A DNA stretch of 64,000 nt from Escherichia coli (GTDB lineage Bacteria; Pseudomonadota; Gammaproteobacteria; Enterobacterales; Enterobacteriaceae). The number at the start of each line of letters is the position of its first letter. Position 1 is the first letter of the stretch. The stretch is from assembly GCF_050920415.1 (NCBI RefSeq), contig NZ_CP169309.1; one strand, 5' to 3'. The position numbers and the translations under genes were made by a program. Of the stretch, positions 32,939 through 34,995 are shown piece after piece. The notes under the pieces were generated by a model. That model was not told the DNA's origin. It did not search any database and worked only from the letters and a program-made list of their open reading frames with translations.

Positions 32939-33790
32939 TTAAGACTGCTTGGACATCGCAGCAACTTCTGCTGCAAAGTCAGTCTCAACTTTCTCGATGC
33001 CTTCACCTACTTCGAAGCGGATGAAGCCAGTCACTTCAGCGTTATGCTCTTTCAGCAGCTGACCAACAGTTTTGCTTGGTTCCATAACGAACGGCTGACC
33101 GGTCAGAGAAACTTCGCCGGTGAATTTCTTCATGCGGCCTTCAACCATTTTCTCTGCGATTTCTTTCGGCTTACCAGACTGCATCGCGATATCCAGCTGA
33201 ACCTGGTATTCTTTCTCTACCACTTCAGCGGAAACATCTTCCGGTTTGATGAATTCTGGTTTGCTTGCAGCAACGTGCATAGCGATGTGTTTAACCAGCT
33301 CTTCGTCAGCGCCTTTAGCAGCAACCAGAACGCCGATACGCGCACCGTGCTGATAAGAACCCAGAACGTCGCCTTCCAGCGCAGCAACGCGGCGAATGTT
33401 GATGTTTTCACCAATTTTCGCTACCAGCGCAACACGTTCTTCTTCGAACTGTGCTTTCAGAACTTCAACGTCAGTGATTTTGCCAGCAACAGCTGCGTCC
33501 AGAACTTTGTCTGCGAACGCCTGGAAACCAGCGTCTTTTGCAACGAAGTCAGTCTGGCAGTTAACTTCCAGAATGATGCCGTAGTTGCCGTCGATTTTGG
33601 TTTTGATCACGCCGTCAGCAGCAACGTTGCCTGCTTTTTTCGCTGCTTTGATAGCACCGGACTTACGCATGTTTTCGATTGCCAGCTCGATGTCGCCGTT
33701 AGCTTCAGTCAGTGCTTTTTTGCAATCCATCATGCCTGCGCCAGTACGCTCACGCAGCTCTTTTACCAGGGATGCGGTAATTTCAGCCAT
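32939..33790 (-). CDS. tsf: Elongation factor Ts
   Basis: 283-aa [30 protein letters not shown].... Confidence 0.98.
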
Positions 33791-33842
33791 TCTAAAATCC
33801 TCGGAGATGTGATCTGCCCGGCATTAAACCGCACAGATATAA

Positions 33843-33873
33843 AAGTGAAAAAGGGGGCCATATGCAGGCCCCC
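33843..33873 (-). terminator. Intrinsic terminator or attenuator in the rpsB-tsf spacer, ~50 nt upstream of tsf
   Basis: Minus-strand GGGGGCC-TGCATAT-GGCCCCC perfect 7-bp GC stem followed by TTTTTCACTTTT. Confidence 0.8.
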
Positions 33874-34047
33874 TAACCAAACGTGTACTACCTGGTCTAT
33901 AAGGGCTCTCCCCCTTCATATTTCGCGCCGCAGATGCGTTGTCTTCGCTCGCTCATCCCGGTCACTTACTGATGTAAGCTCCCGGGAATTCTCGAGCTTG
34001 CCGCCTTTCTGCAACTCGAACTATTTTGGGGGAGTTATCAAGCCTTA

Positions 34048-34995
<948 letters not shown>

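Follow-up and report, generated by a model that had tools for sequence, protein, structure and literature searches.

The window analysed here is a 64,000-nt stretch of Escherichia coli DNA in which rpsB and tsf lie on the minus strand, separated by a spacer of 257 nt (33791-34047). The original prediction had given this length and a normal terminator for the spacer, and measurement agrees with both, with a terminator-like stem-loop and T-run at 33874-33852. In K-12, tff, rpsB and tsf form one transcript (10.1101/262964; PMC8848933). Upstream of rpsB, a match to the t44/tff RNA (RF00127, 83.5 bits) at 34801-34887 on the minus strand corresponds to the annotated tff attenuator, or S2 leader, of the operon. 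The features of the locus are collected in Table 1; the annotation of NC_000913 holds no repeat feature at the rpsB-tsf site.

The 16-mer CCCGGGAATTCTCGAG occurs once in the window, on the plus strand, where it had originally been described. It consists of recognition palindromes for SmaI/XmaI (33981-33986), EcoRI (33986-33991) and XhoI (33991-33996), with neighbours overlapping by one base, and is flanked by the inverted hexamers AAGCTC (33976-33981) and GAGCTT (33994-33999).

Table 1. Coordinates of genes, repeat, RNA structures and Rfam match at the rpsB-tsf locus (window positions).
Feature	Coordinates	Strand	Remarks
rpsB (ribosomal protein S2)	34048..34773	-	stop codon 34048-34050
tsf (EF-Ts)	32939..33790	-	co-transcribed with rpsB
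Complete ERIC/IRU (RU-1) repeat, 127 nt	33908..34034	-	gapless alignment to consensus
'Polylinker-like' 16-mer CCCGGGAATTCTCGAG	33981..33996	reads CTCGAGAATTCCCGGG on transcribed minus strand	ERIC element positions 39-54
ERIC hairpin, 5' arm	33974..34034	-	contains motif, in helices 3 and 4; minimum-free-energy fold
ERIC hairpin, apical loop AUCA	33970..33973	-	minimum-free-energy fold
ERIC hairpin, 3' arm	33908..33969	-	compensating changes CUGGGGUG to CCGGGAUG, GCGAAC to GCGAGC
Small hairpin ACCAGG...UUGGUU, conserved	33875..33897	-	downstream of repeat; in filled and empty alleles and in other genera
Intrinsic-terminator-like stem-loop, then T-run	33852..33874	-	common to filled and empty alleles
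Rfam CssrA (RF02798) match	33853..33962	-	136.6 bits against a gathering score of 93; full-length

The ERIC (enterobacterial repetitive intergenic consensus) repeats, also called IRU or RU-1, were reportedly described by Sharples & Lloyd 1990, Hulton et al. 1991 and Wilson & Sharp 2006. It is nearly certain that the motif is part of a native, full-length member of this family of miniature inverted-repeat elements. The element is exactly 127 nt long. Wilson & Sharp's 127-nt ERIC (RU-1) consensus for E. coli, in the form quoted in Table 1a of PMC2759123, can be aligned with it without a gap, giving 100 matches over the full length (79%) and 100 of 119 (84%) over consensus positions 5-123. The published consensus has the orientation of the window's plus strand, and the rpsB-tsf transcript bears its reverse complement. 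Sites for the ERIC-PCR primers ERIC1R and ERIC2, which target the conserved central inverted repeat, are present with three mismatches each (0 matches expected by chance); the primer sequences agree with PMC6066780.

Other traits of the family are found as well. The copy is an imperfect palindrome whose RNA has a minimum-free-energy fold of -66.3 kcal/mol, with covariation across the family (see below), and it lies between two genes inside a single transcript. It is also one of many: E. coli genomes have a median of 11 matches each (range 2-18) to a 124-nt stretch of it, and the enterobacterial DNA retrieved yielded about 17 independent ERIC loci. The site is filled in some strains and empty in others, pointing to past mobility. 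In three respects the window copy departs from the published family: its termini read CTCC...GGAG where the consensus has TATA...TATA, the two ends having changed complementarily; no simple TA duplication marks its junction with the empty allele; and helix 3, which holds CTCGAG, is fully paired here and in only a minority of copies. Rfam contains no ERIC family. The finding is an ordinary, long-known repeat element, neither synthetic nor specific to this operon, and it leaves knowledge of the family unchanged.

The original prediction had likened the three contiguous palindromes to a synthetic cloning linker, while leaning towards a native structured element; the latter view is upheld. A 38-mer centred on the motif has a match of at least 99% identity at the locus in 3993 complete E. 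coli genomes of wild and clinical origin, with sources that include humans, cattle, pigs, dogs, chickens, a wallaby and seawater, among others. This same sequence at the same place in independent wild-type genomes is what had been named beforehand as the observation that would speak against an engineering artefact. Of 5426 complete E. coli genomes, 4094 have the wider 151-nt region between rpsB and tsf, and the K-12 sequence differs from the window at a single base (33941), outside the motif. With a synthetic multiple-cloning site (SmaI-EcoRI-XhoI linker) the 16-mer shares three common restriction sites in 16 bp, a visual resemblance only; in contrast to such a site it occurs naturally and widely, as part of a repeat element, and no vector sequence lies near it. 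The consensus alignment runs through it without interruption over all 127 nt and without foreign flanks, and the motif recurs in a divergent Escherichia metagenome contig (L104). A scar or linker left behind in a laboratory strain is therefore hardly conceivable.

Position 33941 is a common C/T polymorphism among filled alleles, with C on the transcribed strand of the window (GAAGACAAC) and T in K-12, and sits in an unpaired internal loop of the ERIC hairpin. Three plasmid-labelled records in the E. coli genome collection also contain the rpsB-tsf region, probably because the replicon was mis-assigned or the record is a chromosomal fragment.

Nor does the supposed rarity of triple palindromes in native DNA hold up. 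In 100 composition-matched (first-order Markov) simulations of the 64-kb window, three palindromic hexamers chained by 1-nt overlaps turn up 0.44 times per 64 kb on average, and 38% of the simulations contain at least one such chain. Triple chains at offsets of 4-6 nt number 3 in the window, compared with 3.5 expected from the simulations, and the 16-mer itself, allowing up to 3 mismatches, is found once in the window (0.45 expected).

The ERIC family shows how the three sites came together. The consensus reads TGAGTG/GAATCC/CCCAGG where the window has CTCGAG/GAATTC/CCCGGG, a total of six substitutions, with GAATTC (EcoRI) and CCCGGG (SmaI) each one substitution away. GAATTC occurs at the equivalent place in two other ERIC copies (c13, c17), CCCGGG in copies c21/c22 and in the published Salmonella SeRU-1, and CTCAAG takes the place of the window's CTCGAG in contig L115. 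The restriction sites are an accident: the consensus TGAGTGAATCCCCAGG is already close to the 16-mer, and six substitutions complete it. Each variant recurs in the family, and their joint occurrence is a coincidence. The locus is a cautionary case: clusters of familiar restriction sites arise naturally in palindromic repeats and are not to be read as engineering.

The 257-nt spacer RNA is strongly structured, with a predicted fold of -108 kcal/mol (z = -7). Within it, the ERIC hairpin starts 14 nt past the rpsB stop codon, and the motif supplies the 5' strands of helix 4 (UCCCGG/CCGGGA, pair probabilities 0.89-1.0) and helix 3 (GCUCG/CGAGC, 0.97); the terminal helix CUCCCCC/GGGGGAG is predicted at 0.90-1.0. 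The near-palindrome AAGCTC...GAGCTT, to which the original prediction had drawn attention, is present as sequence but not as structure. As a local functional hairpin, AAGCUC/GAGCUU was rejected, with a pair probability of about 0 in the spacer RNA ensemble; its two halves fall in different helices of the long-range hairpin of about 127 nt.

Covariation was assessed at the level of the family with an alignment (A2) of 15 independent ERIC copies. In the consensus hairpin 87% of cells are paired, compared with 31-42% in slid controls, and 26 of 36 consensus pairs have changes on both sides; none of 500 shuffles reaches the observed values. The window copy differs from the consensus at 27 positions. 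Eight pairs are changed on both sides (1-127, 2-126, 3-125, 4-124, 27-101, 39-87, 48-79 and 52-75), and all eight still pair, while random substitution yields a mean of 0.83 such pairs and a maximum of 5 (20,000 trials). Three of the six substitutions that create the motif are halves of compensated pairs (C39-G87, U48-A79 and G52-C75). With these bases compensated, the hairpin has been kept intact or made stronger. The fold loses 1-6 kcal/mol of stability if CTCGAG is changed back to the consensus, or if only one partner of the EcoRI or SmaI pair is. Taken together, prediction and covariation indicate that the rpsB-tsf mRNA carries a hairpin here that has been maintained.

As RNA, the transcribed strand folds more stably than its complement by 14 kcal/mol, and the window copy forms the most stable hairpin of the 15 copies. 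Such strand-asymmetric stability suggests pairing as RNA rather than as DNA. Across the family, 13 of the 15 copies fold better in one orientation, by a mean of 9.7 kcal/mol, which is due to conserved G-U pairs (alignment columns 23-118 and 63-79, for example).

Queries anchored in both genes revealed a presence/absence polymorphism in E. coli: about 1330 genomes match in two pieces, spanning about 124 bp less than the window. A junction-specific query found this 'empty' spacer allele of 134 nt in 1329 complete genomes; with the 4094 filled genomes this makes 5423 of 5426. The empty group contains O25b:H4-ST131, ST1193, F11, CFT073 and IAI39, which we take to belong to phylogroups B2 and F; K-12, REL606, O157:H7, O104:H4, O111:H8 and ETEC H10407 are among the filled ones. 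Presence or absence of the ERIC appears to follow the phylogroups, with A/B1/E filled and B2/F empty. The comparison sets window positions 33905-34038 against L001, L207 (CFT073) and L208 (IAI39).

In the empty allele, TAATAAGGC-ACGCTCGTAC-GAGCCCTTATAG forms a small hairpin directly past the rpsB stop codon. Enterobacter, Klebsiella, Yersinia, Photorhabdus and about 70 metagenomic enterobacterial spacers share this short form, with a loop that varies, and none of these sampled sequences has an ERIC at the E. coli site. From this distribution across other genera, the short spacer is ancestral and the ERIC derived, occupying the place of the small ancestral hairpin next to the rpsB stop. The relatives come from a scan of genome contigs with Tsf, which returned mostly distant taxa and 6 Enterobacterales, and from a supplementary metagenome scan anchored on the rpsB 3' end; a scan of viral contigs for the rpsB 3' end gave one contig only, already known from the other scans. 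The post-stop hairpin AAGGC..GCTC-loop-GAGC..CCTT is conserved across the Enterobacterales with its variable loop (window 34039-34047 and 33897-33904; L003-L008, L090-L206). The ACCAGG...TTGGTT hairpin and the terminator are highly conserved too, making the ancestral spacer itself a structured 3' UTR.

All contigs that have the filled allele of the window also have an E. coli-type spacer. One of them, the metagenome contig L104 (OASX01001218.1), shares 92.6% identity with the window over 13.7 kb, and its tsf differences are nearly all synonymous; this suggests that it derives from an Escherichia other than E. coli. It carries the same filled allele including the motif, with 2 differences in the 257-nt spacer against 7.4% divergence contig-wide. 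Either the insertion predates E. coli, in which case the emptiness of B2/F needs explaining, or the spacer has recombined. Selection on the repeat as the cause of this near-identity was rejected: rpsB is equally conserved (3/726), so that general constraint or recombination explains the pattern in L104.

The insertion in E. coli replaces 10 nt of the empty allele by 134 nt. Positions 1-2 and 126-127 of the window copy read CT...AG, without the terminal TA, and the empty allele, which has a central TA (GCTCG-TA-CGAGC), offers no counterpart to the 7-9 nt preceding the element. A clean TA-duplication reconstruction was rejected: although the right junction can be made to fit, the left flank (TTGATAA versus ACGCTCG) cannot. 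In L095/L115, a complete ERIC with a clean TA duplication lies in the loop of the second spacer hairpin, and in L160 an ERIC-like insertion lies at the TA of a small palindrome (GAGA-ACTA-TCTC). Overall, at least four other enterobacterial lineages, represented by metagenome contigs (L095/L115, L121, L160 and L150), have independently acquired an ERIC or ERIC-like element in the rpsB-tsf spacer. The points of capture vary between the first hairpin, the second hairpin's loop and a position downstream of the terminator; all captures share the orientation of the window copy, and most are at a TA central in a small pre-existing hairpin.

The Rfam model CssrA (RF02798, chromosome-encoded Shigella sRNA A) aligns from end to end with a region that takes in the greater part of the ERIC 3' arm together with the small hairpin and the terminator; its first 55 or so positions are the ERIC 3' arm. 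CssrA is defined as an sRNA gene with its own start, whereas the region in the window looks like rpsB 3' UTR and spacer. The source paper reports a Northern band of about 110 nt in S. flexneri, takes the 3' end from a terminator prediction, back-calculates the 5' end from the band size, and lists map/rpsB as the neighbours in its table. These neighbours correspond to the t44/tff region rather than to rpsB/tsf. Because of this listing and of a 5' end that is only estimated, the placement of CssrA and its standing as an independent sRNA are doubtful. A pattern made from the CssrA consensus variant CTGCGGCTCGAAATATGNNGGGGG had 0 matches in the metagenome scan for filled alleles outside E. coli; the variant is evidently not a real sequence.

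The CssrA record nevertheless hints at a stable 3' fragment. The element could on this basis be the precursor of a discrete sRNA, if cleavage of the hairpin were to free the 3' arm and terminator as a 3'-UTR-derived RNA of about 110 nt. The strong model match and the band of that size speak for such processing, while the estimated ends, the map/rpsB neighbours and the lack of any known target or function make it quite improbable.

We assign a probability of roughly 0.85 to the overall explanation, which joins ERIC identity, an RNA hairpin and a proposed RNA-level mechanism. The ERIC is transcribed inside the tff-rpsB-tsf mRNA and is predicted to fold as a hairpin of about 127 nt after the rpsB stop. 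In the proposed mechanism this hairpin would be an enlarged replacement of the ancestral post-stop hairpin. It may act as a barrier to 3'-exonucleases and as a processing site, and so might mildly change how stable the rpsB segment of the transcript is compared with the tsf segment. Taken by itself, the RNA-level role (a tolerated, mildly modulatory 3'-UTR hairpin), drawn by analogy with co-transcribed ERICs in Yersinia, is the likeliest one but is put forward tentatively, at somewhat less than even odds. E. coli can do without the element: about a quarter of the species, the B2 and F lineages, has no ERIC here.

De Gregorio et al. 2005 reportedly described comparable co-transcribed ERICs in Yersinia enterocolitica. 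According to the accounts in PMC2229807, PMC3184786 and PMC10969869, co-transcribed ERICs in Yersinia shift the stability of the flanking transcripts relative to each other, depending on orientation and through an RNase E site in one TIR. As far as those accounts go, the Yersinia copies resemble the window copy in being near the upstream stop codon, co-transcribed and capable of forming an RNA hairpin; the orientation-dependent RNase E effect, in contrast, belongs to Yersinia and was shown there, not at rpsB-tsf.

The same observations bear on several other readings of the element. A regulatory RNA specific to the rpsB-tsf operon and conserved across the Enterobacteriaceae would suit the strong predicted structure and a ribosomal-protein operon known for RNA-based autoregulation. 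Conservation of this kind, which the original prediction had raised, is contradicted by the distribution: here the element is missing from about 25% of E. coli and from every sampled relative outside Escherichia (Enterobacter, Klebsiella, Yersinia, Photorhabdus and the metagenomic spacers). The sequence moreover belongs to a dispersed repeat family and the known S2 autoregulatory element lies in the 5' UTR, and we regard an operon-specific element as very unlikely. Equally slim are the chances that the element works as DNA, for instance as a cruciform or by binding a protein, with an effect on replication or supercoiling. As DNA it is an imperfect palindrome, but its pairing is strand-asymmetric through G-U pairs, by 14 kcal/mol in the window copy and with the same bias in 13 of 15 copies, and a review reports no ERIC DNA motifs besides the TIRs.

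A more serious competitor is that the copy is a neutral fossil, a dead selfish ERIC with no effect on the operon, in which the complementary changes would stem from template-switch (quasi-palindrome) mutation or from the source copy. We consider this nearly as likely as the RNA-level role. Dispensability in the B2/F lineages fits neutrality equally well: 1329 E. coli genomes and all sampled other genera are without the element and show no sign of harm. Its termini, lacking TA, probably render it immobile, and the low divergence of L104 is matched by rpsB (3/726 versus 2/134), revealing no special constraint. The compensated pairs could be products of palindrome-templated mutation instead of selection, and those that are not terminal could predate the insertion, inherited from a diverged source copy. 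Neutrality is less at ease with eight of eight doubly changed pairs remaining paired where 0.83 are expected, with the window copy being the most stable of 15, and with all four or five independent insertions in the spacer sharing the orientation that gives the more stable mRNA hairpin. The compensatory changes in situ (also at the former TA termini), this exceptional stability and the same-orientation captures, mostly into loops of pre-existing hairpins, are the grounds for a bolder proposal, namely that the rpsB-tsf ERIC has been co-opted as an RNA module, selection favouring a large hairpin that would set the S2:EF-Ts expression ratio. We think such co-option unlikely; if true, the natural polymorphism between filled (A/B1/E) and empty (B2/F) E. 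coli would be a ready-made experiment. For the RNA-level role of ERICs in general, which is debated, the polymorphism, the repeated captures by the spacer and the structure-preserving substitutions could make the question directly testable in a well-studied essential operon.

Beyond the enterobacteria, the Correia/NEMIS elements of Neisseria are likewise MITEs that are co-transcribed with their neighbours and form RNA hairpins that are nuclease substrates; they differ from the window copy in their unrelated sequence, in RNase III cleavage at the TIRs and in belonging to a different phylum-level lineage. A weak Rfam match to the Vibrio AS5 RNA (24 bits, E = 0.037) extends across the whole ERIC hairpin (33912-34035, minus strand). 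The V_AS5 model describes a similar long hairpin, which suggests that this family models an ERIC-like repeat of Vibrio.
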